From Eubacteriales bacterium (GTDB lineage Bacteria > Bacillota > Clostridia > Oscillospirales > CAG-272), in the NCBI GenBank assembly GCA_045596865.1, contig JAZODF010000074.1, forward strand, positions 24,407 through 88,406: a stretch of DNA of 64,000 nucleotides, written 5' to 3'. Below the pieces are notes generated by a model, which saw only the letters and a list, made by a program, of their open reading frames with translations, searched no databases and was not told the DNA's origin. Numbering within the stretch: the stretch's first letter is position 1; the number at the start of each line of letters is the position of its first letter. Below are positions 5,863 to 37,235 of the stretch, in pieces. A program made the position numbers and the translations under genes.

Positions 5863-7563
5863 TTACCGCTTGGTGAATTTAAGGGTGGTCTCGAGCTCGA
5901 AGCAAGCGCCGTGACCCTTCGAGATAACCGCAATCGCGTAGTCGATTTTGTTCTCGTCGTTCATCACGGGGATGAGGCTCGTGCTCATCGGCCGCGAGGA
6001 CTCGATTTCGGTGTGGACCCCGTGCGTCAGGCGCTCGATACGGCTCTCGCTCGGCTGATGGACGTCGGCGCGCGCGGTCAGTATGCGCGACTCCCACGCC
6101 ATTTTGCGGCTCGCCGTTACACGGTCGGTTATGGTGACGGCATCCTCCGCGATGGCAATCCTTCTTTGCCACTCGTACCCGTCCTTTCCCTCGCGGACAC
6201 GGATGCTGAACGCGATTATTCCGCTCGGGTCAAACTCGGTGATCTCGCTCGTCATATCTATACCGCCATCGGGGTAGCTGAACTCGGGGGTGAACAGTAT
6301 GCTGTGCGTTCTCGGATCGCGTAAATGCCAATACAGCTCCCAGCGGTCGTATGAGCAACAGCCGCCGTCAACGATTATCGGCTCGTTGCCGTAGAATAGC
6401 AGTAGCTCGGGTCGCGCGCCGTGGTGATGTCCGCCGCGATAATCCATCGCATCTGCATACAGGGTGATATCCCCGCACCGCAAAACCGCGGTCTTGCTCT
6501 CTCTGAAATGCCTGCTCGTCCGCTCGCGTGGAAAATCGATCTGTAACAGCCGCTCGGCGCGTGCAAGGTCGGCGAGTGCATCCATCCCGTAGGAATCCGA
6601 GATTCTTGCCGTCCGTCCCGCGGGCGTTGCAAAATTATATAGCCACTCGTATTGCTTGACGATACTCTCGCGTAGTCCCGCCGGTGGCTCCATGCCGTTG
6701 TTTTTGAGGAGCAGATACGCCTCGAGGTAAAGCCGCACGATAAAGTGCCCGTAGGACGGGCTGTCCTCGTCGGATGCCCCGTCGGGGTATATGGCACGCA
6801 TGTTCATCTTAAGCGTGTCGGTGCCGATGGCGAGCAGCTCCTCGGCGCGTGGCAGCTCGGGGAACATTACCGCCGCCATTATGAGCACGACGCCAATCTG
6901 CAGGACGTGATTTTGTGCGAGGCCGCGCCTGATCCTGTCCTCCGCTTCCTCGTAAAGGTGTGAGGTGTGGGTGGCGAGCAGGGCGTAAAGGTATTCCCAC
7001 TCCTCGCGGCTGAACGGCGCATCCTCCAGCATAAACAGGCCGTGGAGCAGGGACATCGTGCGCCACGCCACCTGCATATCCCGCCACACCATATCGGTCT
7101 GCAGGTAATGCACCTCGGGGTCGAAGGGCTGATACGGGTGCGCGTCTGCCCATCCGCGAACTATCTCGAGCCAACGGCGCGCATACCGCTCCTCCCCCGT
7201 CCGTAAAAATGCGTGTGCGACGGGTATCGTCATATACAGCCTCTGCGGCCATATCTGCCACTCGTATTTCTTCCTGAAGCCCGTTCCCTCCGTGTAGGCG
7301 AAGGACCGCTCCCAATTGTACTCGCCGCCGTTTTGAAACTCGTGGAAAAGCTCGCCCGACATCGTCAGCTCGAGCATGCGCTCGCCTGAATTTGACCCAA
7401 ACCGATCGAGCATCAGCTGGGACGCACCCCCATCAAGGACGAGGTAGGGAAAGATATCCTCGCCCATCAGCTCCTCTCGCGGATATGCGTAGTGTGTGAC
7501 CCGCCTCTGCCCGAAAATCTCGGTGGCGTAGGGCTTCGTGTACTCGGTGCCGTGCCTCTTCAT
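5863..7563 (-). CDS. Heparinase II/III-like (alginate-lyase-fold) protein, no signal peptide
   Basis: 566 aa with AAGGAGG RBS. The N-terminal alpha/alpha-toroid region reads ...WADAHPYQPFDPEVHYLQTDMVWRDMQVAWRTMSLLHG. The C-terminal heparinase II/III-type block reads ...YADAMDYRGGHHHGARPELLLFYGNEPIIVDGG. Confidence 0.7.
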   Translation of the reverse strand: MKRHGTEYTKPYATEIFGQRRVTHYAYPREELMGEDIFPYLVLDGGASQLMLDRFGSNSGERMLELTMSGELFHEFQNGGEYNWERSFAYTEGTGFRKKYEWQIWPQRLYMTIPVAHAFLRTGEERYARRWLEIVRGWADAHPYQPFDPEVHYLQTDMVWRDMQVAWRTMSLLHGLFMLEDAPFSREEWEYLYALLATHTSHLYEEAEDRIRRGLAQNHVLQIGVVLIMAAVMFPELPRAEELLAIGTDTLKMNMRAIYPDGASDEDSPSYGHFIVRLYLEAYLLLKNNGMEPPAGLRESIVKQYEWLYNFATPAGRTARISDSYGMDALADLARAERLLQIDFPRERTSRHFRESKTAVLRCGDITLYADAMDYRGGHHHGARPELLLFYGNEPIIVDGGCCSYDRWELYWHLRDPRTHSILFTPEFSYPDGGIDMTSEITEFDPSGIIAFSIRVREGKDGYEWQRRIAIAEDAVTITDRVTASRKMAWESRILTARADVHQPSESRIERLTHGVHTEIESSRPMSTSLIPVMNDENKIDYAIAVISKGHGACFELETTLKFTKR

Positions 7564-7681: not shown

Positions 7682-7800
7682 GCCGCCTGTTCTCACCTCG
7701 CACTTGCCGCTTACCCCGCGCCGCCTGTTCTCACCTCGCACCTGCCGCTTATCCTGCGCCGCCTGTTCTCACCTCGCACCTGCCGCTTACCCCCGCCGCC
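7682..7800. repeat. 38-bp tandem repeat x3 plus a partial fourth
   Basis: Units start at 7682, 7720 and 7758 (GCCGCCTGTTCTCACCTCGCAC[T/C]TGCCGCTTA[C/T]CC[C/T]GC). A partial fourth unit forms the last codons and stop of dapA. Confidence 0.9.
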
Positions 7801-8680
7801 TTGCCTCGTATTCGTCCATCGCGCGGTCGATTTTTCGGCGGCTCCGCTCGGTCGGCAGCCACATCGGCAGTCGCATCTCAGGCGAGCAAAGGCCCGCCTG
7901 AGCCATCGCGTATTTGACGGGTGCGGGATTGGTCTCGAGGAACAGGGCTTTTACGATACCCCCCAACCCGTGTTGAATTTCGCGCGCCGCGCGGTAATTC
8001 TTTGCAAAGAATTGTTTACATATCTCTACGGTGTCCTCGGGGTACAGATTCGACACCACAGATATCACCCCCGCACCCCCGAGGGCAAGGGTAGTGTATA
8101 TCATCGCATCCGCCCCTGTGTAAAGGGGCAGCCGCGCGGCAATCTCCGACAGCTGTGCGAGGCGCTCGGCGCTGTCCCCCGCCTCCTTTATCCCTGCGAC
8201 GGCGGGTATGCGGGATAGCCGCCGTACCAGCTCCATGTCGAGGTTCACCCCCGTGCGCGAGGGGACGTTGTATAGGATCATCGGCATCCCGACCTCCTCC
8301 GCTATCGCACGGTAGTGGCGGTATATCCCCTCGCGCGTGCCTTTGTTGTAATAGGGTGTCACCACCAGCGCTCCGTCCGCGCCCACCTCTCTTGCAAGGC
8401 GGGTGTAGCCTATTGCCCGCCGCGTGTCCGCAGAACCCGTCCCGAGGATGAGGCACACCCGCCCACGCGTCATATCCCGCACCCGCCGATACAGCTCGGC
8501 GCGCTCCCCGTCGGTGAGGGTCGCCGCCTCGCCCGTCGTGCCCGCGGCAACGATTGCCTGTGCCCCCGCCGCTATCTGCCGCTCGACGAGATTGCCGAGC
8601 GTCCCATAATCAATCTCGCCGTCCCTAAACGGGGTGACGATGGCGGTCCCCACCCCCGTGAAAATTGCCGTTTTCTTCAT
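7787..8680 (-). CDS. dapA: 4-hydroxy-tetrahydrodipicolinate synthase
   Basis: 297 aa. DapA signature blocks are GTTGEAATLT, TPYYNK, LYNVPSRTG (substrate Arg) and AGIKEAGD (Schiff-base Lys). Confidence 0.8.
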   Translation of the reverse strand: MKKTAIFTGVGTAIVTPFRDGEIDYGTLGNLVERQIAAGAQAIVAAGTTGEAATLTDGERAELYRRVRDMTRGRVCLILGTGSADTRRAIGYTRLAREVGADGALVVTPYYNKGTREGIYRHYRAIAEEVGMPMILYNVPSRTGVNLDMELVRRLSRIPAVAGIKEAGDSAERLAQLSEIAARLPLYTGADAMIYTTLALGGAGVISVVSNLYPEDTVEICKQFFAKNYRAAREIQHGLGGIVKALFLETNPAPVKYAMAQAGLCSPEMRLPMWLPTERSRRKIDRAMDEYEARRRG

Positions 8681-9903: not shown

Positions 9904-10028
9904 ATTGTGTGATACTTTGTTAAAGCTTCGACTCATAACGCTCGACATAGGTAACTATGCCATCGCGTTAATCGCTCGCTTTGCCTTGTCTCACGCAATT
10001 TCTCCTAATCAGCAAAGAGTGAATAGTG

Positions 10029-10077
10029 AATAGTGAATAGTGAAGAGTGAATAGTGAAGAGTGAAGAGGTTTAGAGG
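10029..10077. repeat. Heptanucleotide tandem repeat (AGTGAAT/AGTGAAG) x7
   Basis: Read directly: AGTGAAT x3, AGTGAAG, AGTGAAT, AGTGAAG x2. It ends 5 nt before the purine-rich run TTTAGAGGAAAGGAG (10081-10095), whose GGAAAGGAG end (10087-10095) is the RBS of the rlmA-like gene. Confidence 0.95.
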
Positions 10078-12606: not shown

Positions 12607-12630
12607 TAGCGCTCCGTCACCCACCTAGCG

Positions 12631-12757
12631 CCCCTCGCATTCGCGGCGCGCCCTTCCACCTGCCACATTCGACCGCACCCACGTCGCACCCCTCGCATTC
12701 GCGGCGCGACCTTCCACCTGCCAGATTCGACCGCACCCACGTCGCACCCCTCGCACA
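12631..12757. repeat. 58-bp tandem repeat, about 2.2 copies
   Basis: Copies start at 12631, 12689 and 12747 (partial): CCCCTCGCATTCGCGGCGCG[C/A]CCTTCCACCTGCCA[C/G]ATTCGACCGCACCCACGTCGCA. It lies just downstream of the ansA stop. Confidence 0.9.
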
Positions 12758-16402: not shown

Positions 16403-17629
16403 ATGAATTTTGGTTTTACCGATGAAAATGTAAACAATAGTATACGCGAGGTCATCCTCTGCAAGTTCGGTGAGGTCGTCCTCAAGGGCGCAAACCGCCA
16501 GAACTTCGAATCCGGCCTTGTGAAGGAGCTTCGCCGCCGTGCGAGCCCCTACGGCAACTTTAAGATCTACTTCAAGCAGTCGACCGTCTACGTCGAGCCG
16601 CAGGACGCCGCGGCGGATATGGACGGAATGTATAACGTCGCAAGGAAGGTGTTCGGCATCGTCGGCGTAAACCGCGCCGCCGTCTGTGAGAAGAATATGG
16701 ACGCCATCCTCGATATGGCGCGCCGCTACCTGCCCGACAAGCTCGCGGGCAAGCGCACCTTCAAGGTCGAGGCAAAGCGCTCGGACAAGAAATTCCCCCT
16801 CGGCTCGCTTGAAATCTCCGCCATCGTCGGCGGCGTGATTCTCGAAACCGTCCGCGGCATCAAGGTCAACGTCAAAAATCCCGAGGTCACCGTCACCGTC
16901 GAGGTGCGGGACGACTTCGCCTTCATTCGCGCGGGACAGGAGGCGGGCGCGGGCGGTCTTCCGCTTCGCTCCTCGGGCAGGGGTCTGCTCCTTCTCTCGG
17001 GCGGCATCGACTCCCCCGTCGCGGGTTGTATGATGGCAAAGCGCGGAATGGAGATCGAGGCACTCCACTTCGAGTCCTTCCCCTACACCTCCGAGCGCGC
17101 AAGGGAAAAGGTCCTCACCCTCGCACAGGAAATGTGCGAATACTGTGCAAAGATCCACGTCCACGTTATCTCCCTGACCCATATTCAGGAGGTCCTGCGC
17201 GACAATTGTACCGAGGATTATTTCACTCTCCTCCTTCGCGTGTTTATGATGCGCCTTGCCGAAAGGTGTGCCCGCGACTACAAGTGCGGCGCCATCATCA
17301 CGGGTGAATCGCTCGGACAGGTCGCCTCCCAGACCCTCGCCGCCATCGGCGTCACCGACTCGCAGGTAAATATCCCCGTCTTCCGCCCCTGCATCGGCAT
17401 GGATAAGGAGGAGATAGTCCGCCAGGCACGCCACTACGGCACCTTTGACACCGCCATCCTCCCCTACGAGGATTGCTGCACCGTCTTTACCCCCCGTCAC
17501 CCGAAAACCCAGCCGAAGCTGGAGGACGTCCTCGCCGAGCTTGCGAAGGTGGACGTCGACGCCCTTCTTGAGGAGGCGTATCAGTCGATGTATACGGTGA
17601 CAAAGGTTGTCTATGACGGTTATCGCTAA
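16403..17629 (+). CDS. thiI: tRNA 4-thiouridine(8) synthase ThiI
   Basis: 408 aa. It has a THUMP-type N-terminus (ILCKFGEVVLKGANR) and the PP-loop LLLLSGGIDSPVA. Confidence 0.9.
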   Translation: MNFGFTDENVNNSIREVILCKFGEVVLKGANRQNFESGLVKELRRRASPYGNFKIYFKQSTVYVEPQDAAADMDGMYNVARKVFGIVGVNRAAVCEKNMDAILDMARRYLPDKLAGKRTFKVEAKRSDKKFPLGSLEISAIVGGVILETVRGIKVNVKNPEVTVTVEVRDDFAFIRAGQEAGAGGLPLRSSGRGLLLLSGGIDSPVAGCMMAKRGMEIEALHFESFPYTSERAREKVLTLAQEMCEYCAKIHVHVISLTHIQEVLRDNCTEDYFTLLLRVFMMRLAERCARDYKCGAIITGESLGQVASQTLAAIGVTDSQVNIPVFRPCIGMDKEEIVRQARHYGTFDTAILPYEDCCTVFTPRHPKTQPKLEDVLAELAKVDVDALLEEAYQSMYTVTKVVYDGYR

Positions 17630-17727
17630 ATTTTTCCGCGCAAGGGTTCGGCCAAGAGGCTCGACGTAGATTTGATCGCTAAATTTTTCCGCGCTAAGGG
17701 CTCGGCCAAGAGGCTCGACGTAGATTT
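17622..17727. repeat. 53-bp tandem repeat x2 overlapping the thiI stop codon
   Basis: ATCGCTAAATTTTTCCGCGC[A/T]AGGG[TT/C]TCGGCCAAGAGGCTCGACGTAGATTT occurs at 17622 and 17675. The first copy contains the thiI TAA stop. Confidence 0.9.
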
Positions 17728-17988: not shown

Positions 17989-18287
17989 ACCGATGGGCGC
18001 GTGATGCGCCGCGGTCTTTGGGAGGAGTAACCCCTACCTGTCGGAAGAGAGTGCGCGGTTGGTGCGAGCGCATGGCAAGGGCGGGCGAAGGTAGCCCGAA
18101 GTATCCCGAGAAGAACGGCAATCGCCTACCCGCTTTTCGCGACTCCGTCGCGGTGGGACGTGCGGCGGCTCATTAGACCTCGGCGTGCCTCGCGTTAAGA
18201 GAGAATGAAGGGGAGCCACGGCTCCCGAACTTGGGTGGTACCGCGTTTATACGCCCCGAGGCTTTTTCGCCTCGGGGCTTTTTGTTT
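17989..18287 (+). promoter_or_regulatory. T-box riboswitch leader (valS)
   Basis: The canonical T-box sequence AACTTGGGTGGTACCGCG lies at 18228-18245. A terminator follows directly: GCCCCGAGGC / GCCTCGGGGC (18253-18278) plus TTTTTGTTT. Upstream there is AGAGAG (18046-18051) and a GGTGCGA distal-loop-type motif (18061-18067). A candidate Val specifier GTA is at 18101-18103, but this is uncertain because a GGT lies nearby. Confidence 0.85.
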
Positions 18288-18690
18288 GATTTTGCCGCCC
18301 TCACTCGCGGCGCCGACGGGCGTAAGCCGCCGCGATTGTGTAATCTCACGTTGTCATTTTGTACCCCGATTTTTTGCCTAAGCCCGACCCTGTGTCGCGT
18401 TTTACGGGGCTTTGCACCTCGTCTGCGCCTCGAGAGAGTAAGACGGTGAAAAAGGACAACAGAATGACTACGAAGGACGCTCAACGGGTGTAAAACCGCT
18501 CAAAAAACACCCCGAAAATCACGACACAGGGTGCGGTTTGAACGCCAAAAGCACCACGAAACGCGACACAGGGCAGGGCATAGTGCGACAAAAACAAACA
18601 CGCACGGATAAACCGCTCCGCACGCACCCACCGAAAACCAAAAGACGATTATTATTAAAACGCCGCGAAAAGCAGCAGGAGGAAATAAAT

Positions 18691-21321
18691 ATGAGAAAAG
18701 AGCTTGCCAAAAACTACAACCCCGGCGAGTTTGAGGACAGAATCTACGCCGAGTGGTGCGACAAAAACTACTTCGCACCCGACCCCGATCCGAAGAAGCC
18801 CGCCTTCTCGATCGTCATCCCCCCGCCAAACGTAACGGGACAGCTTCACATGGGTCACGCCCTTGACGAAACGCTGCAGGACATCATCGTCCGTACCCGC
18901 CGTATGCAGGGCTACTCCACCCTTTGGGTACCCGGCACCGACCACGCGGGCATCGCCACGCAGATCAAGGTTGAGGAGCACCTCCGCAAGAACGAGGGTC
19001 TCTCCCGCTATGACCTCGGCCGCGACAAATTCCTTGAGCGCGTCTGGGATTGGAAGCATCAGTACGGCGGCAGGATCATCAACCAGCTAAAGAAGCTCGG
19101 CTCCTCCTGTGACTGGTCGCGTGAGCGCTTCACGATGGACGAGGGCTGCTCCCGCGCGGTACGCGAGGTGTTCGTAAACCTCTATAACAAGGGCCTTATC
19201 TACCGCGGTCACCGTATCATCAATTGGTGCCCCCGTTGCCTCACCGCCCTCTCGGACGCGGAGGTCGAGTACAAGGATATGCCCGGTAACTTCTGGCACA
19301 TCAAGTACCCCGTCAAGGGTGAGGACGCCTACGTCGAGATTGCCACCACCCGCCCCGAGACCATGTTCGGTGACACCGCCGTCGCCGTCAACCCCGAGGA
19401 CGAGAACACCAAGCACCTCATCGGCAAGACCCTCATCCTGCCCATCGTCGGCAGGGAGATCCCCGTTGTCGCCGACGATTACGTCGAGATCGGCTTCGGT
19501 ACCGGTTGTGTAAAGATCACCCCCGCCCATGACCCGAACGACTTCCTCGTCGGTCAGCGCCACAACCTCGAGCACATCAAGGTAATGACCGCCGACGCCA
19601 CTATGAACGCATACGCGGGCAAGTACGAGGGCATGGATCGCTACGAGTGCCGTAAGGCGTTGGTAAAGGACCTCGAGGCAGAGGGCTACCTCGTCAAGAC
19701 AGAGCCCCACGACCACAACGTCGGCACCTGCTACCGTTGCGGCACCACGGTTGAGCCGCTCACCTCCGACCAGTGGTTCGTTAAGATGAAGCCGCTCGCC
19801 GCACCCGCGATCGAGGCGGTTGAAAACGGCACCGTTTCCTTCGTTCCCGAGAGATTCTCGAAGAACTACTTCAATTGGATGAACAACATCCTCGATTGGT
19901 GCATCTCCCGTCAGCTCTGGTGGGGTCACCGTATCCCCGCCTTCTACTGTGACGATTGCGGCCACATGGAGGTATCTAAGACCGACGTCGACACCTGCCC
20001 GAGGTGCGGCGGCAAGGTCCATCAGGAGGAGGACGTCCTCGACACCTGGTTCTCCTCGGCTCTCTGGCCCTTCTCGACGCTCGGCTGGCCCGACTCTACC
20101 GCAGACCTTGCGCGCTATTATCCGACCTCCACGCTCGTCACGGGCTACGATATCATCACCTTCTGGGTCTCCCGTATGATCTTCTCGGGTATCGAGCATG
20201 TTGGCAAGGCACCCTTCTCGAAGGTGTTCATCCACGGCCTCGTCCGCGACGCAAAGGGCAGAAAGATGTCCAAGTCGCTCGGCAACGGCATCGACCCGCT
20301 CCAGATCATCGACTCCTTCGGCGCGGATGCACTCCGCTTCGCGCTCACCACGGGTAACGCACCCGGCAACGATATGCGCTTCTCGGATGAGAAGATCGAG
20401 GCGGCGAGGAACTTTGCCAACAAGCTCTGGAACGCATCCCGCTTCGTTCTTATGAACCTCACCGAGAGTGACGAGGAGCTGCTCGCTCCCGTCGATGACG
20501 CCGACCTCGCACCCGAGGACAAGTGGGTCCTCTCTCGCCTCAACAAGACGGTCGGCTCGGTTTGCCAGAACTTCGAGAACTACGAGCTAGGCATCGCCCT
20601 ATCTGAGATCTATTCCTTCACTTGGGACACCTATTGCGACTGGTATATCGAAATGGCAAAGAGCCGCATCTTCGAGGGTGGCGCACCCGCCCTTACCGCG
20701 AAGCGCGTCCTCGTTAAGGTGCTCACCTCCATCCTGAAGCTCCTTCACCCCTATATGCCCTTCATCACCGAGGAGATCTATCAGGCTCTGCCTCACGCGG
20801 ACGAGTCGATAATGATCTCCGAGTACCCGAAATTTGACACGGGTATGGACTACACCGCCGCCGAGGAGGACGTCGAGCGTATCATCACCTGCATTACCGC
20901 CATCCGTGCGCGCCGCGCCGAGATGAACGTCCCCCCCTCGAAGAAGGCAAAGCTCTACGTCGTTTCCCGCTACGAGGACTCCTTCCGCACCGCGGAAAAG
21001 ATTCTCTTAAAGCTCGCAAGCGCGTCCGAGGTCATCCTCACCGACGCATACACCGCCGACGATGCGATCACCTTTGCCACCGACGCGGGCTCGCTCTATA
21101 TCCCCCTTGCCGAGGTCGTCGACCTTGATAAGGAGCGCGCAAGGCTCAAGGCAGAGCTCACCAAGACCGAGGGCGAGATCGAGCGCATCGAGAAGAAGCT
21201 CTCGAACGCAGGCTTCGTGTCCAAGGCACCCGCCGCCGTCGTCGACGGCGAGCGCGCAAAGCTCGGCAAGTACCGCGAAACCCGCGAGGCTATCCTCGCC
21301 GCCCTTGCAAAGCTCGGGTAA
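18691..21321 (+). CDS. valS: Valine--tRNA ligase
   Basis: Track ORF trimmed to the ATG at 18691 (AGGAGG 8 nt upstream). It has the HIGH-type motif [14 protein letters not shown], the KMSKS motif ([11 protein letters not shown]) and a C-terminal coiled coil. Confidence 0.95.
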
Positions 21322-21352
21322 ATTTACTTGCTGACACAAATTGTAATTCTGC

Positions 21353-21515
21353 CTTCCCTAGCAAGGGAAGTGTGGAAGAGAGTTGCAAAGCAACTCGACG
21401 GATGAGTTGTCCGAGAGTGGTATTCTCGCCGACGCGAGAGTGGTATTTGTGCGCGTCGCACAAGTGATATTTTTGCTGCGCAAAAGTGATATTCCCACAA
21501 AGTGGGAGTGAATAA
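21353..21515 (+). repeat. Array of seven abutting mini-hairpins, the last four interleaved with five copies of AGTGRTATT
   Basis: Read directly; see the findings. It lies in the valS-LRR gene intergenic region and ends 12 nt before the ATG at 21528. Confidence 0.85.
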
Positions 21516-21527
21516 AAGAGAAATACT

Positions 21528-22445
21528 ATGGCTAACGAAAATGTAAACAATACTATACAAAACGAGGACGAGCTTCGCATCGTCTATCGCGGTGTGTACG
21601 AGGACACACCCGAGAACAGCACCGTTACTGTGGAGGAGGGAATGCTCGAGATAACCGAGAACGCCTTCCGCGATTTTGAAAACCTCACCGAGGTGATTCT
21701 GCCCCGCGGTCTTGAGAAGATCGGTGCCTGTGCCTTCGCGGGCTGCAAAAACCTGCGCCGCGTCGTGCTCCCCTACGGCCTTACCGAGATAGGCGACGAG
21801 GCCTTCTCCTCCTGCTCCTCGCTCACGGGCGTCACCATGCCCGACACGGTGAAAAGGGTTGGCGAGGGCGCGTTCGAGGCCTGTGTCAGCCTCACCCACC
21901 TGAAGCTATCCGAGAGCGTGTATATGATCGGCTCGGGCGCGTTTGCCTTCTGCTTCAACCTCACCGACATGACCGTCCCCGACAGCTGCGTGCTCGTCGA
22001 GTTCAACGCCTTTGCCTCCTGCTTCTCGCTCGAGGCGGTGCGCCTTTCGGCGAATATGGGCCTCATCGACGAGAACACCTTCGAGGGCTGTCGCTCACTG
22101 AAGATCGTCGACCTACCCGCACGCCTTCGCAAAATCGGTCGCGGCGCCTTTCGCGGGTGCACCTCGCTCGAATCGCTCATCCTTCCCGTCGGACTCGAAT
22201 CCATCGGCTACGACGCCTTCTCGGGCTGTACGGGGCTCCGTCGGATCGCCCTTCCGCGCGCCGTGCGCGAGATTGAGGACACCGACGCCTTCTCGGGCTG
22301 TGACTCGCTTGAGTGCATCTCCTACGGCGGTGACGAGGCGGGGTGGAATATGCTCCTTCGCGGCTCGACGCTCACCGTCACGCACACCGACCTCACCGTT
22401 TCCACACCAAAAATAATTTTTATGGACATTAAAGATGAAATATAA
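21528..22445 (+). CDS. BspA-type leucine-rich-repeat protein, no signal peptide
   Basis: 305 aa with about 22-23-aa repeats: ...IxxxAFxxCxxLxxVxLPxxLxxIGxxAF... (ITENAFRDFENLTEVILPRGLEKIGACAFAGCKNLRRVVLPYGLTEIGDEAFSSCSSL...). Confidence 0.8.
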   Translation: MANENVNNTIQNEDELRIVYRGVYEDTPENSTVTVEEGMLEITENAFRDFENLTEVILPRGLEKIGACAFAGCKNLRRVVLPYGLTEIGDEAFSSCSSLTGVTMPDTVKRVGEGAFEACVSLTHLKLSESVYMIGSGAFAFCFNLTDMTVPDSCVLVEFNAFASCFSLEAVRLSANMGLIDENTFEGCRSLKIVDLPARLRKIGRGAFRGCTSLESLILPVGLESIGYDAFSGCTGLRRIALPRAVREIEDTDAFSGCDSLECISYGGDEAGWNMLLRGSTLTVTHTDLTVSTPKIIFMDIKDEI

Positions 22446-23094
22446 ATGCCTCGTTCTCGATCACGACGATACCGTCGTTGACAGCACCGCAACCATACAT
22501 TACCCCTCCTTCATCGCCTACCTCGAGGACTATATGCCTGAGCGGGTCGGCGACTACACCCTCGACGTCTTCTTCAAGAAAAACTTCCACCCCGGCGTTC
22601 TCGAGCTGTTCCGCGACGAGCTTGGAATGAGTGATGAGCAAATGGCGCACGAGGAGGAATATTGGGTCAAATTCGTTGATAGCCGCATCCCCTCCGCCTA
22701 CGACGGAATCAGGGAGATAATTACCGATTTTCGCACACAGGGTGGCACTATCGCGGTTGTTTCCCACTCCTTCAAGCGGTATATCGAGCGGGATTACAGG
22801 CACAACGACCTGCCCATGCCCGACGTAATCTACGGCTGGGATATCCCGAAGGAAAATCGCAAGCCCTCCCCGTGGTGCATCCTCGACCTTGCAGACCGCC
22901 TCGGCATCCATCCGTCCGAGATTCTCGTCGTCGACGACCTGAAGCCGGGCTACGATATGGCACGCGCCGCGGGCGCGGTCTTTGCCGCCGCAGGCTGGGC
23001 AAACGATATCCCCGAGATTGAGGAGTTTATGCGCGCCAACTGCGACTACTACCTCAAAACGGTGGCCGACCTCGCCGCCCTCCTCGCTAAATAA
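22435..23094 (+). CDS. HAD-superfamily hydrolase (phosphatase)
   Basis: 219 aa. It has the DxD nucleophile motif LVLDHDDTVVDS, and later VVDDLKPGYDMARAAG. It overlaps the LRR gene by 11 nt. Confidence 0.75.
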   Translation: MKYKCLVLDHDDTVVDSTATIHYPSFIAYLEDYMPERVGDYTLDVFFKKNFHPGVLELFRDELGMSDEQMAHEEEYWVKFVDSRIPSAYDGIREIITDFRTQGGTIAVVSHSFKRYIERDYRHNDLPMPDVIYGWDIPKENRKPSPWCILDLADRLGIHPSEILVVDDLKPGYDMARAAGAVFAAAGWANDIPEIEEFMRANCDYYLKTVADLAALLAK

Positions 23095-33718: not shown

Positions 33719-33998
33719 CCCGTTAAAGGGTGATGTGCACCTAAGTCCCACCCCGTGTTAAATTATCCGCGGCTAATGCGCGATTATCTACACCTTGTTT
33801 TACACCGTTGTTAACGGCAAAATGCAAACCTATTGTTTACAAAAAAGCACCCACCCGCCCGCATAACGGGCGGATGGGGACCCCCGAAATGCGTATCCCG
33901 CTCCTCCACTCCTCCTAGTGCACGCATTTCAGTCAAAACGGTTTTTTGATGTTAGACATCTTAAAAATAAAATAAATTTTAAATCAGGAGGCACACAA

Positions 33999-36900
33999 AT
34001 GAAAATGTCAAAAATTTTGACACTGATCGCAGTGGTAATGGTACTCGTTCTTGCCTTTACTGCCTGCGGTCCCAAGGACCAGCCCAATGCGGAGCACAAG
34101 TGCGAGAGCGCGTGTGAGACCTGCGGCAAGTGTACCGATGCATCTTGCACCGAGGACGCCTGCAAGGGCAAGTGCGAGGGTCATGACCCCGCACCCGTTG
34201 AGACAACGCCCTCTATCAGCGTTGTTCCCCCCGCGATCGAGATCCACGCGGGCGACGAGATCGACCTCATGTTCGGTGTTACCGTAACCGACGAGGGCGA
34301 CGATGCTCCCACCCTCATTATTGAGGACGACGACGGCTTCGACGCCGAGGTCGTTGGAAGCTACACCATCACCTACAAGGCACAGAACAAGTACGGCAAG
34401 ACCGCTACCGCGACCCGTACCGTAACCGTCCTTGAGGCACTCTCCGCTCTTTCTCTCGAGGTCAGAGCTAACAGACTCGGCGAGAATAAGTGGGCAGGCA
34501 ACATCCTCTCCTTCAAGAACAACGAGTTCGTCACCATCACCGCTAATTACGTTTCCGACGTGGCAATCAGCGGCGTATTCTACAACGCATCCGAGTCCGA
34601 GCTCACCGTGAGCATCACGGGTCAGTACGGCGTTGCCGCTATCATCGACGCTAACGGCTTCGTTCTCGAGGGCCGCGACGGCGCGAACGGCAAGCTCGTT
34701 AATCAGGCTAACCCCGACAGAACCGCAAGCTCGGTTTCCACCATTCAGGTTGGTGATGAGTCCGTTTCCGTAGTAAGCGCATTTGCAAAGAACCTCGTGG
34801 TTCCCGCAGGCGGCTATGCTATCGTTGTTCAGAACGGCTACTGCGGCACCACCGTTGATACCGACGGCCGCGGCTTCATGAACTACAACGTTATTTACCA
34901 GTACGGCAACGTTGTTCGCCTCGTATGGGCTGACAGCGCCGAGGTACTCACCCCCTACGTTGACCAGGCTCCCGTAATCACCGGCCACGGCAACAAGGTT
35001 CTCGCTAATTACACCGACGCCGAGTTCGTTCTCGCCGACGCTATCGCAGCGGGCCTCACCGTAACCGACGATAACGGTACCTTCGATCCCTCCGATGACG
35101 TTGTTCTCACCGTTTCGGTTACCGACAACGGCGGCTTCGACATCAACACCGTCGGCTCCTACACCGTAACCATCACCGCAACCGACGGCACCCTTACCAC
35201 CACCGTTACCCGCGTTGTTGACGTTGTTGACAACCTCGTTAGCGTTATGGTAAACGATAAGGCGTTCAGCCTTCTTCCCGACAAGATCGCAATCGACGAG
35301 GACCTCACCAAGCTCGGCTCCTACCTCTTCGTCGTTTACACTCCCGAGTACACCGGCACTCTCAACTGGACCAACGGCTGGGGTGAGGCGTTCATCCTCA
35401 ACCAGTACGGCCAGGTTATCCGTATCTACGACGGCGCTAACGGCAAGTACTACGATGCTGACAACACCGCGGGTGTTGTTGACGCTACCAAGTGCACCGC
35501 GGCAGGATACCTCACCGAGGCATTCGCCTCCCGTCAGGCAGGCGAGTATATGATCGTTGCTCCCAACGGCACCGCCGGCAACCTCTCCCGTGCGTTCCTT
35601 CTCGGTAACCGTACCATCGGCGCACAGCTTACCATCCCCGGCATCACCTTCCCGAATGCTCCTCACACCTGCGAGAGCAAGTGTGACAAGTGCGGCAAGT
35701 GCCTTGATGCAGAGTGCACCGAGTCCGTCTGCGCCGAGAAGTGCGAGGGCCACGCTCACGAGTGTGAGAGCGTATGTGCAACCTGTGGCAAGTGCCAGGA
35801 TGCAGAGTGCACCGAGGCCGTTTGCGCTGAGAAGTGCGCGTGCCACGAGTGCGAGAGCGTATGCGAGCATTGCGGCGGCTGTACCGATGCTGAGTGCACT
35901 CAGGCTGCCTGCGCAACCAAGTGCCCCGGCCACGTTGGCTCCATGTTCGTTACCATCGGCTCGAAGAAGTACGAGGCGCTGAGCGGCAAGTGGGCTATCA
36001 ACGAGACCATCACCACCTCCACCGCGGCTAACAAGGCGGTTTGGGTATTCACCAAGGATTACACCGGTGAGTTCTCCACCAACGGCTACGGCGCGGCAGT
36101 TATCCTTGACCAGTACGGCAGAGTTCTCAGAATTTACGACGGTGCTAACGCAGGTTATACCGACGCAGAGTCCGGCGTTAACAACAAGGACCACGGCGTA
36201 ACAACAGGCAATTATGCTACTCTCGCATGGGAGAGCCTTCAGGCGGGCGAGTACCTCGTTGTACTTCCCAACGGTGGCTCCACCGATAACGAGGCACGCA
36301 AGCTCGGTCTTGACTGCCGTTGGCTCATCGGCCAGAAGATGAATCTTACAGGCGTTGAGTTTGCATCTACCACCATGACCATCACGATCGGCTCCAAGAC
36401 CTACACCGCTGAGCTTGGCAAGTGGGCTGTTAACGAGACCATCACCACTAATACCGCGGCTAACAAGGCTATCTGGGTATTCACCAAGGATTACACCGGT
36501 GACTTCACCACCAACGGCTACGGCGTAGCAGTTGTTCTTGATCAGTTCGGCAGAGTTGTAAGAGTTTACGACGGCGCTAACGCAGGCTACACCGACAAGG
36601 ATTCGGGCGTTAACAACAAGGACCACGGCGTAACAACAGGCAATTATGCTACCCTCGCATGGGAAAGCCTTCAGGCAGGCGAGACTCTCGTAGTGCTTCC
36701 TAACGGCGGCACCGAGGGCAACGTAGCCCGTCAGGTTGGCCTTGATTGCCGTTTCCTCATCGGTCAGAAGATGTCCGTAACCGGCATCAAGTTCCTCGAG
36801 ACCGAGATGACCATCCAGATCGGCGCGAAGACCTACACCGCCGAGCTTGGCAAGTGGGCAATCAACGAGACTATCACCACCTCCACCGCGGCAAGCAAGG

Positions 36901-37235
36901 CTATCTGGGTATTCACCAAGGATTACTCCGGTGAGTTCTCCACCAACGGCTACGGCTGTGCAGTTATCCTTGACGCTGAGGGTAAGGTTCTCAGAATTTA
37001 CGACGGCGCAAACGCAGGCTATACCGATAAGGATTCGGGCGTTAACAACAAGGACCACGGCGTAACCACAGACAACTACGCTACCCTCGCATGGGAAAGC
37101 CTCCAGGAGGGCGAGACTCTCGTCGTTCTTCCTAACGGCGGCTCTACCGATAACGCAGCACGCAAGGTCGGCCTTGATTGTCGTTGGCTCATCGGCCAGA
37201 AGATGACCATCACCAACGTTGACTTCGCAGGCTAA
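33999..37235 (+). CDS. Large lipoprotein: four Cys-rich modules, two Ig-like (DUF5011-type) domains, five copies of an unknown ~140-aa domain
   Basis: Track ORF trimmed to the ATG at 33999 (AGGAGG 8 nt upstream). The lipobox-like signal is MKMSKILTLIAVVMVLVLAFTAC. Cys modules lie at 34095-34184 and 35664-35933. The Ig-like blocks are ...VVGSYTITYKAQNKYGKTATATRTVTV and ...TVGSYTVTITATDG. Three 432-bp tandem repeats lie at the 3' end. Confidence 0.8.
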   Translation: MKMSKILTLIAVVMVLVLAFTACGPKDQPNAEHKCESACETCGKCTDASCTEDACKGKCEGHDPAPVETTPSISVVPPAIEIHAGDEIDLMFGVTVTDEGDDAPTLIIEDDDGFDAEVVGSYTITYKAQNKYGKTATATRTVTVLEALSALSLEVRANRLGENKWAGNILSFKNNEFVTITANYVSDVAISGVFYNASESELTVSITGQYGVAAIIDANGFVLEGRDGANGKLVNQANPDRTASSVSTIQVGDESVSVVSAFAKNLVVPAGGYAIVVQNGYCGTTVDTDGRGFMNYNVIYQYGNVVRLVWADSAEVLTPYVDQAPVITGHGNKVLANYTDAEFVLADAIAAGLTVTDDNGTFDPSDDVVLTVSVTDNGGFDINTVGSYTVTITATDGTLTTTVTRVVDVVDNLVSVMVNDKAFSLLPDKIAIDEDLTKLGSYLFVVYTPEYTGTLNWTNGWGEAFILNQYGQVIRIYDGANGKYYDADNTAGVVDATKCTAAGYLTEAFASRQAGEYMIVAPNGTAGNLSRAFLLGNRTIGAQLTIPGITFPNAPHTCESKCDKCGKCLDAECTESVCAEKCEGHAHECESVCATCGKCQDAECTEAVCAEKCACHECESVCEHCGGCTDAECTQAACATKCPGHVGSMFVTIGSKKYEALSGKWAINETITTSTAANKAVWVFTKDYTGEFSTNGYGAAVILDQYGRVLRIYDGANAGYTDAESGVNNKDHGVTTGNYATLAWESLQAGEYLVVLPNGGSTDNEARKLGLDCRWLIGQKMNLTGVEFASTTMTITIGSKTYTAELGKWAVNETITTNTAANKAIWVFTKDYTGDFTTNGYGVAVVLDQFGRVVRVYDGANAGYTDKDSGVNNKDHGVTTGNYATLAWESLQAGETLVVLPNGGTEGNVARQVGLDCRFLIGQKMSVTGIKFLETEMTIQIGAKTYTAELGKWAINETITTSTAASKAIWVFTKDYSGEFSTNGYGCAVILDAEGKVLRIYDGANAGYTDKDSGVNNKDHGVTTDNYATLAWESLQEGETLVVLPNGGSTDNAARKVGLDCRWLIGQKMTITNVDFAG
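35943..37232 (+). repeat. Three in-frame 432-bp (144-aa) tandem repeats inside the lipoprotein gene
   Basis: Units start at 35943 (MFVTIGSKKYEAL..), 36375 (MTITIGSKTYTAEL..) and 36807 (MTIQIGAKTYTAEL..). Long identical stretches include WVFTKDYTG.F.TNGYG.AV.LD..G.V.R.YDGANAGYTD..SGVNNKDHGVTT.NYATLAWESLQ.GE.LVVLPNGG. Confidence 0.92.

Follow-up and report, generated by a model that had tools for sequence, protein, structure and literature searches.

The spacer between valS and a gene for a BspA-type LRR protein holds a row of short hairpins that alternate with a conserved 9-mer. It lies in a stretch of 64,000 nt of DNA from a Eubacteriales bacterium, which was analysed as a whole and is called the window here. 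The locus raises the question of what kind of element this array is, whether it belongs to the LRR gene that follows it and whether its conserved unit is read in RNA or in DNA.

The hairpin array between valS and the LRR gene

The gene valS (18538–21321, plus strand; Pfam tRNA-synt_1, Anticodon_1 and Val_tRNA-synt_C) lies upstream of the array and is co-directional with it. A spacer of 206 nt (21322–21527) separates valS from the LRR gene (21528–22445, plus strand; Pfam LRR_5, 1.4e-57), which directly follows the array and is itself followed by a HAD hydrolase gene (22435–23094; Pfam HAD_2). For valS, the listed open reading frame begins at a TTG at position 18538; the true start codon may lie downstream of it. 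A T-box leader was recognised upstream of valS at 18011–18261 (plus strand) over the full length of the model, with 73.7 bits against a gathering score of 93 (E = 4e-14).

The core array (21416–21515, plus strand) was delimited by reading of the sequence, motif enrichment and a shuffle test, and consists of five 9-mers alternating with four perfect hairpins. Four of the 9-mers match AGTGRTATT exactly, namely AGTGGTATT at 21416–24 and 21439–47 and AGTGATATT at 21463–71 and 21485–93, and the degenerate last one reads AGTGAATAA (21507–15). The hairpins have stems of 5–6 bp and loops of 3–4 nt and are CTCGC-cgac-GCGAG (21425–38), TGTGCG-cgt-CGCACA (21448–62), TTTGC-tgc-GCAAA (21472–84) and CCCAC-aaa-GTGGG (21494–506). 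The last 9-mer and a 12-nt segment, AAGAGAAATACT, lead up to the start codon of the LRR gene (21507–21527). No space for a promoter is left between array and ATG, and the Shine-Dalgarno sequence of the LRR gene is weak. Positions, 9-mers, perfect hairpins and the distance of 12 nt to the ATG had been given in the same way in an initial annotation of this DNA and were all borne out by our reading.

The initial annotation had also placed three hairpins without a 9-mer directly upstream (21353–21415, plus strand). Sequence reading and folding showed that those at 21353–70 (7 bp) and 21383–93 (4 bp) are perfect as claimed, whereas the one at 21394–415, which abuts the first AGTG, is imperfect and pairs CTCGAC with GTCCGAG via a 1-nt bulge. 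It is uncertain whether these hairpins are part of the array element.

The array is real and far above chance. The 9-mer AGTGRTATT occurs four times in the 64-kb window compared to 0.4 expected occurrences, and four or more were obtained in none of 100 shuffles. Six perfect non-overlapping hairpins are present in the 206-nt spacer, whereas the maximum among 20,000 dinucleotide shuffles was four, reached in five of them. Dinucleotide shuffling had been proposed as a control for the chain of four hairpins; with a distance of exactly 9 nt between neighbours, no chain longer than two was found in 20,000 shuffles, and the chain of four appeared in none. The folding z-score of the intergenic RNA between valS and the LRR gene is −5.9. 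The promoter scan of 20900–21900, a region covering the spacer, detected no sigma-70-like promoter, and the terminator scan yielded no clear intrinsic terminator between valS and the array. Sequence reading and motif scanning of the window copy revealed neither minus-strand 9-mers nor TATTCGCC or GGCGAATA.

The 9-mers were thought at the outset to be single-stranded linkers, which they need not be. The UAUU 5′ of each hairpin can pair with the AGUG 3′ of it (U-A, U·G, A-U, U·G), leaving R alone unpaired.

Other tandem repeats of the window were reported by Tandem Repeats Finder at 7682–7801, 12618–12755 and 17622–17727, with periods of 38, 58 and 54 nt and two to three copies that are 92–96% identical; the first two are C-rich. 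A repeat of 432 nt (35977–37206, 2.9 copies, 82% identity) lies inside a long open reading frame (33918–37235) and presumably represents a repeated protein domain.

Anatomy and distribution of the Gut-1 family

No known architecture could be named for the array when it was first described. It is matched end to end by the Rfam family Gut-1 (RF01706), whose covariance model aligns with positions 1–77 of 77 to 21415–21497 (plus strand). The alignment by cmscan accommodates all three model hairpins and four linkers of the GUGA(A/U)AU type. Although statistically significant (E = 9.6e-8 in 301 nt and 2e-5 over the 64-kb window, with no second Gut-1 match there), the score of 44.2 bits is below the curated gathering score of 50. 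In all likelihood, the window array is a solo, single-orientation and slightly divergent copy of the Gut-1 hairpin/9-mer array.

The published Gut-1 consensus comprises three hairpins split by GUGAAAU, was found only in human-gut metagenomes and was classed as an RNA with unknown function that is not cis-regulatory (Weinberg et al. 2010, Genome Biol 11:R31, PMC2864571). The seed alignment of 2010 already holds GUGAUAU variants, upstream terminators and AAUAUCAC-hairpin flanks (PMC2864571). A literature search on Gut-1, RF01706 and the motif strings found no description beyond the 2010 paper.

A search of other genomes for pairs of the 9-mer, as suggested initially, recovered the same units. 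The pattern AGTGRTATT-N12-17-AGTGRTATT, scanned in one genome per species, gave at least 120 loci, mostly in gut Clostridia MAGs, and 9-mer/hairpin units of the window type are present in more than 75 gut Clostridia genome loci. Among the matches listed, 253 of 412 inter-motif units from at least 120 bacterial genome loci contain perfect stems of at least 4 bp, compared to 4 of 252 spacers from viral contigs in which this pair of motifs occurs. Spacers that form hairpins are a feature of the bacterial genomes and not of the viral contigs. Spacer lengths in the family range from 7 to 19 nt among the matches listed, which corresponds to periods of 16–28 nt, and the hairpin always closes. Because the period varies while the hairpin closes, a folded single strand is favoured. 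Phased double-stranded DNA iterons, one of the two readings put forward for the array at first, are disfavoured by this range of spacings, and no replication gene is nearby.

Most copies among the matches listed are composites of about 170 nt (loci of the family are denoted by L numbers). A composite begins with a strong hairpin or terminator, followed by AGTT-N-TATTCGCC, hairpins joined by AGTGATATT, GGCGAATA-N′ and an inverted tail of three or four AATATCACT-hairpin units. AGTT-N-TATTCGCC pairs with GGCGAATA-N′-AAT, forming a helix, P1, which is absent from the Rfam model and closes the conserved multi-hairpin domain. N and N′ covary (A-U in 16, U-A in 13 and C-G in 3 of 34 composites). Comparison of the 34 aligned composites yielded 96.4% paired cells (79.4% in shuffles), 227 double-change cells (70 ± 7 in shuffles) and a covariation score of 0.427, compared to 0.122 for shuffled alignments and 0.035–0.094 for slid structures. 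The notion that structure is kept without sequence, derived originally from the single array, thus holds at family level in the form of strong covariation. Long-range pairing of left and right 9-mers into a four-way-junction ladder, which RNAfold predicts, is not supported by the covariation, with 82 uncompensated T·C cells, and was rejected.

The window copy has neither the P1 sequences nor the inverted AATATCACT-hairpin tail of a composite. Solo arrays like it were found at L041, L060, L101, L120, L034 and L087, and intermediate forms with shortened conserved halves at L033, L004, L031 and L042. With 57 bits, the solo array L060, located between murI and rbfA directly before the ribosome-binding site, passes the Gut-1 gathering score, as do the conserved half of the composites and, on the other strand, the inverted half of L017. 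The closest solo relative of the window array among the matches listed is the Christensenella-like L041 (78% identity over 73 nt, blastn), and the nearest DNA matches of the window are Clostridia MAGs from animal guts. Hairpin 3 of the window (TTTGC-tgc-GCAAA) is found again in L058, L038 and L064, there as one of the tail hairpins. Copies sharing a genome usually differ in stem sequence. Two solo arrays end in other sequences, AGTTGTGGATAAGTCCACAACT in L120 (around 2579–2600) and AGTTGTGGAA in L041 (around 6471–6480); the former is a palindrome with the perfect DnaA-box sequence TGTGGATAA. The canonical 9-mer, judged by eye, is one base short of TTATNCACA, and likeness to a DnaA box or another known operator was rejected.

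Conservation at the window locus itself was sought at several levels. No close homologue of the LRR protein was obtained (the best one shares 62% identity along part of the protein), look-ups for exact copies of three window proteins gave no match and no orthologous sequences of the locus were found for an analysis of stem covariation. The array was seen behind valS in none of 80 metagenome valS loci, all of which are 51–63% identical and thereby too distant to speak for or against conservation.

The initial annotation tied the array to the LRR gene, a connection that the family does not support. The same arrays adjoin genes of 164 Pfam families, represented by 147 flanking proteins among the matches listed, and lie mostly behind terminators and tRNA genes. 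Since these neighbours are unrelated housekeeping genes, gene-specific regulation was rejected, and the array should not be annotated as an LRR-specific regulator. The sole recurring neighbour is a 23S-IVS four-helix-bundle gene at five loci among the matches listed, which are probably one orthologous locus. In L010, L012, L031, L046 and L114 (e.g. L031, 449–835), a gene of the 23S-rRNA-IVS-type four-helix-bundle family (PF05635) abuts the last AATATCACT unit of the composite; these five genes have their own TTGACA-17-TATAAT promoter, and the motif overlaps or touches its −35.

Thirteen arrays among the matches listed start 31–55 nt after a tRNA gene, with eight different tRNAs represented. 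Twelve of them are composites, co-directional with the tRNA and separated from it by a bidirectional terminator; one follows an rRNA operon. In the remaining case, the solo array L015 and its tRNA face each other, with a terminator in between. Among the matches listed, eight solo arrays were informative as to direction, and six of these, the window copy included, run the same way as the gene upstream; several solo arrays precede a terminator. At L082, an identical composite occurs twice in tandem at a distance of 400 nt, each copy behind the terminator of a different tRNA.

An association with mobile elements was rejected as well. No transposase, HUH protein or integrase is found among the 147 flanking proteins of the matches listed, blastn yielded no match in plasmids and a single partial one in phages, and only 1 of 120 viral pattern matches is a real array. 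Genuine Gut-1-type arrays in viral collections are limited to two, in the phage record MT835815.1 (5071–5183) and the viral contig L134 (1477–1558); both stem from gut samples and may be prophage or host DNA. Two nearly identical composites in inverted orientation at L066 (2277–2449 and 4995–5145) flank about 2.5 kb, the only case among the matches listed that resembles a recent duplication or composite-transposon arrangement.

Hairpin-free repeats with a related core were also observed. In the window, seven tandem heptamers of the type AGTGAAT/AGTGAAG occupy 10018–10066 (plus strand), and the start codon of an RlmA-like methyltransferase gene follows 26 nt later. Their AGTGA core is also that of the array 9-mer, and over AGTGAATA they are identical to the last array unit. 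Such heptamers also occur in L072 (929–949) and L086 (4089–4109), where they precede a terminator that in L072 is common to a convergent tRNA, and in L003 (3441–3500) and L033 (7928–7948), where a Gut-1 array is no more than about 100 nt away. These heptamers may represent the putative binding motif of the array in a form without hairpins.

Taken together, the element is dispersed, old, under structural selection and not gene-specific. Listed in Rfam since 2010 without organism, context or function, Gut-1 is a lineage-specific intergenic element dispersed in gut Clostridia, with Acutalibacteraceae, Oscillospiraceae, Ruminococcus and Christensenella-like MAGs as hosts. Its anatomy now includes a covarying closing helix, an inverted tail, a fixed junction with tRNA and rRNA-operon terminators, a candidate promoter on the opposite strand and solo arrays within operons. 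The composite anatomy, P1, the tRNA-terminator junction, the antisense promoter and the loop asymmetry described below appear to go beyond the 2010 description. Together with the hosts, this anatomy makes an orphan motif testable.

Strand, possible role and rival explanations

The evidence on strand and on RNA versus DNA conflicts. Among the matches listed, the innermost flank pair shows compensatory changes from T-A to G-C in 11 cases, and the next flank pair is T·G in all 283 units, a wobble that is possible only in the AGUGRUAUU sense. Position 5 of the 9-mer varies almost only between A and G. One-sided changes in the 34 composites amount to about 20 G·U versus about 9 A·C in the Rfam orientation. 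The corresponding strand test on single hairpins gave 7 G·T versus 16 A·C, which is not decisive (p = 0.09). The stems are about 98% Watson-Crick, with G·T or A·C at about 2% of positions, unusually few wobbles for RNA; about 85% of stems are perfectly Watson-Crick, and G·T is no commoner than A·C. Loops read in the sense of the 9-mer are of the form T..C closed by C-G in 101 cases among the matches listed and of the form G..A in none. On the AATATCACT strand they correspond to c(GNA)g and c(GNNA)g, and the 7-nt spacers read GCGAAGC, GCGTAGC and GCGCAGC. Such loops are the signature of extra-stable DNA mini-hairpins (PMC13037366, PMC3201870). Many composites, the best-conserved ones included, are flanked by a strong terminator on one side and an outward-facing promoter on the other, so that a sense RNA would depend on read-through.

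On balance, we tentatively favour a solo Gut-1 copy acting as a folded RNA as the best explanation as a whole, with a confidence that stays just short of even. The simplest reading places the array inside a valS-LRR-HAD transcript. We infer that valS, the array and the LRR gene would share one transcript, in which the array is intercistronic and read in the AGUGRUAUU sense. Every unit would fold as a hairpin of 8–10 bp, with a variable, covarying upper stem on a fixed UAUU/AGUG base. Since the hairpin closes whatever the length of the spacer, the invariant 9-mers would be set at regular positions along a row of hairpins in the folded state. Somewhat more tentatively, such a row could, as RNA, work at a transcript boundary as a module for multivalent docking. 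The trans-acting partner would be a protein with sequence-specific RNA binding or, alternatively, the AAUAUCACU linkers of composite Gut-1 loci, whose complementarity is perfect. Once bound, the partner might decide the fate of the RNA by protection or processing of the 3′ end between valS and the LRR gene, by attenuation or by controlling access to the weak ribosome-binding site of the LRR gene. The initial annotation had raised an RNA platform for a protein multimer; in this general form the idea may hold, and the hairpin-free AGTGAAK heptamers at 10018–10066 and at four other loci lend it some indirect support.

In 33 of 34 composites, the best sigma-70-type site on the opposite strand, a putative promoter, was found at one fixed place, with a TTGAAA-like −35 derived from one tail hairpin with conserved sequence, a distance of 16–18 nt and an extended −10 of the form TGnTATTnT. 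The predicted opposite-strand RNA ends at a terminator, carries three AAUAUCACU linkers between hairpins and folds cleanly. P1 would fall outside this transcript, and one P1 strand overlaps the −10 region, yet P1 covaries. Gut-1 as a whole might then be a many-to-many network of RNA-RNA contacts, with the composite producing an antisense small RNA and the solo arrays acting as multivalent targets or sponges, although we consider this network improbable. A small RNA of about 110–130 nt, starting from the internal extended −10 promoter opposite the Rfam strand, is an equally doubtful part of it. The same holds for the suggestion that the three AAUAUCACU seeds would be single-stranded between GNRA/GNA-capped hairpins, with the shared bidirectional terminator forming the end. 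No better prospects can be given for the pairing of AGUGRUAUU in solo arrays with these seeds, in which R opposite U would form A-U or G·U. If the network existed, seed-target matching across the genome would explain invariant 9-mers beside drifting stems.

A DNA element resembling REP/BIME is the main rival of the folded RNA, though a rather unlikely one. The hairpins would form in single-stranded DNA, on the lagging-strand template or by supercoil-driven extrusion. Recognition of the 9-mer would fall to a DNA-binding protein or DNA enzyme, for example a HUH/RAYT-like nuclease, gyrase, a primase or a restart factor. The window copy would then be one of many dispersed copies, and its position before the LRR gene would be incidental. 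The loops of the AATATCACT strand and the 7-nt spacers, which are exactly the stable DNA mini-hairpins (PMC13037366; PMC3201870), agree with this explanation, as do the nearly wobble-free stems, the covariation of P1 despite its overlap with the putative −10 and the presence of several intergenic copies per genome without gene association. Many of the copies occupy apparently untranscribed gaps, flanked by a terminator and a promoter, or follow tRNA and rRNA operons at their 3′ ends. However, the absence of transposase, HUH and integrase genes from the 147 listed flanking proteins and the negative plasmid and almost negative phage searches do not fit, and stems that differ in sequence within one genome are not products of recent transposition. 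The invariant T·G flank pair and the restriction of 9-mer position 5 to A or G suit RNA better, solo arrays share the direction of the upstream gene, and the G·U excess in the composite alignment points the same way, even though the counts per hairpin are without such an excess. That the window array is instead the orphaned tail half of a composite, which has lost the P1 domain and has no function of its own, is quite improbable. The tail half of a composite would carry the promoter and the upstream region of the opposite-strand small RNA, and the extended −10 promoter in 33 of 34 composites, the missing TATTCGCC...GGCGAATA domain, the tail-like hairpin 3, the score under the gathering threshold and the intermediates with shortened halves are all compatible with such a remnant. 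Decay should, however, leave mismatches rather than four perfect hairpins and four exact 9-mers. The window array has no promoter-like site, and clean solo arrays exist in other taxa, with L060 passing the gathering score and L041, L101 and L120 being similar.

It would be highly improbable for the units to act as tandem weak terminators or attenuators, in which an extended hairpin and AUAUU(U), aided by factors of the NusA/NusG type, insulate LRR-HAD from valS. When the UAUU/AGUG extension is counted, hairpins 1 and 2 precede GUAUUUGU and AUAUUUUU, and both were flagged as terminator-like. The initial statement that U-tracts are absent is accordingly nearly right, with these two units as exceptions and a total of three flags versus 1.3 ± 1.3 expected, which is at chance level. 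Arrays do lie at the 3′ ends of genes behind primary terminators, and the variant of the first 9-mer in one subfamily of composites, AGUUUUAUU, abuts a long hairpin and would be its U-tract. The U-run of the canonical 9-mer is nevertheless short and interrupted, the final unit before the LRR gene has no U-tract and intrinsic termination needs no invariant 9-mer. We give hardly any credence to a translational leader specific to the LRR gene for a TRAP/CsrA-like multimer, or to phased double-stranded iterons. The end of the array 12 nt from the ATG, beside a weak ribosome-binding site, would suit a leader, and repeats with the AGUGA core occur without hairpins in the window and elsewhere, but the family is associated neither with LRR genes nor with any other gene class, and GGA and (G/U)AG triplets are missing from the motif. 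The periods of 16–28 nt follow no helical phase, and no replication-initiator gene is nearby.

Comparison with known systems

CRISPR arrays, plasmid iterons and type III toxin-antitoxin loci (ToxI) likewise alternate conserved and variable segments at a regular period. In the window array, the conserved part comprises only 9 nt and the variable part of 13–15 nt is a self-complementary hairpin, whereas ToxI repeats are identical 34–36-mers. A repeat of 9 nt is well below the minimum of about 23 nt for CRISPR, and the spacers are hairpins; plasmid iterons do not match either in view of the family periods and of valS, LRR and HAD as neighbours. No cas, rep or toxN-like genes are nearby, and none of ten window proteins matches a Cas family in Pfam.

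The sponge RNAs CsrB/RsmZ and TRAP leaders are similar in that a short motif is repeated along a hairpin scaffold for a multimeric partner. Here, the motif is the 9-mer AGUGRUAUU at the bases of the hairpins instead of GGA or (G/U)AG in loops. Reading of the window array revealed neither GAG/UAG triplets at 2–3 nt spacing nor a GGA in a loop, and it is thus assigned to neither the TRAP nor the CsrA type.

REP/BIME elements (REPINs, Proteobacteria) are, like Gut-1, dispersed, multi-copy and lineage-specific intergenic palindromes with a short conserved flanking motif, and occur in inverted clusters at gene 3′ ends or behind terminators without gene specificity. Stabilisation of mRNA at the 3′ end and binding of gyrase, IHF and RAYT are known for REP elements. 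The window units differ in being only 22–24 nt long and in conserving the linker rather than the palindrome. Stems that vary within a genome and the lack of any Y1/HUH family among the 147 neighbours of the matches listed separate Gut-1 from this class.

DNA mini-hairpins of the type d(GCGNAGC)/d(GCGNNAGC) are extraordinarily stable and are known from promoters and from priming sites on single strands (Kimoto and Hirao 2026, PMC13037366). The c(GNA)g/c(GNNA)g loops of the family's AATATCACT strand and 7-nt spacers that literally read GCGAAGC or GCGTAGC are alike. The known mini-hairpins occur singly in the origins of phages or plasmids and do not form chromosomal arrays, and in the window only one of the four loops (GCA) fits.

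The Gut-1 RNA itself differs from the window copy in its closing helix of TATTCGCC...GGCGAATA, in number of units (four or five in the window) and in position, as a typical copy follows a terminator and has an inverted array as its counterpart, whereas the window copy stands alone inside an operon. Both have at least three short GC-rich hairpins and a GUGA(A/U)AU linker, with stems that covary at family level. The family comes from sequence of the gut Clostridia type, to which the window is close by its nearest DNA matches, and the seed alignment shares the order of terminator and motif and the AAUAUCAC-hairpin flank (PMC2864571). The window array is a new sub-threshold member of this known but uncharacterised family, in a new position.
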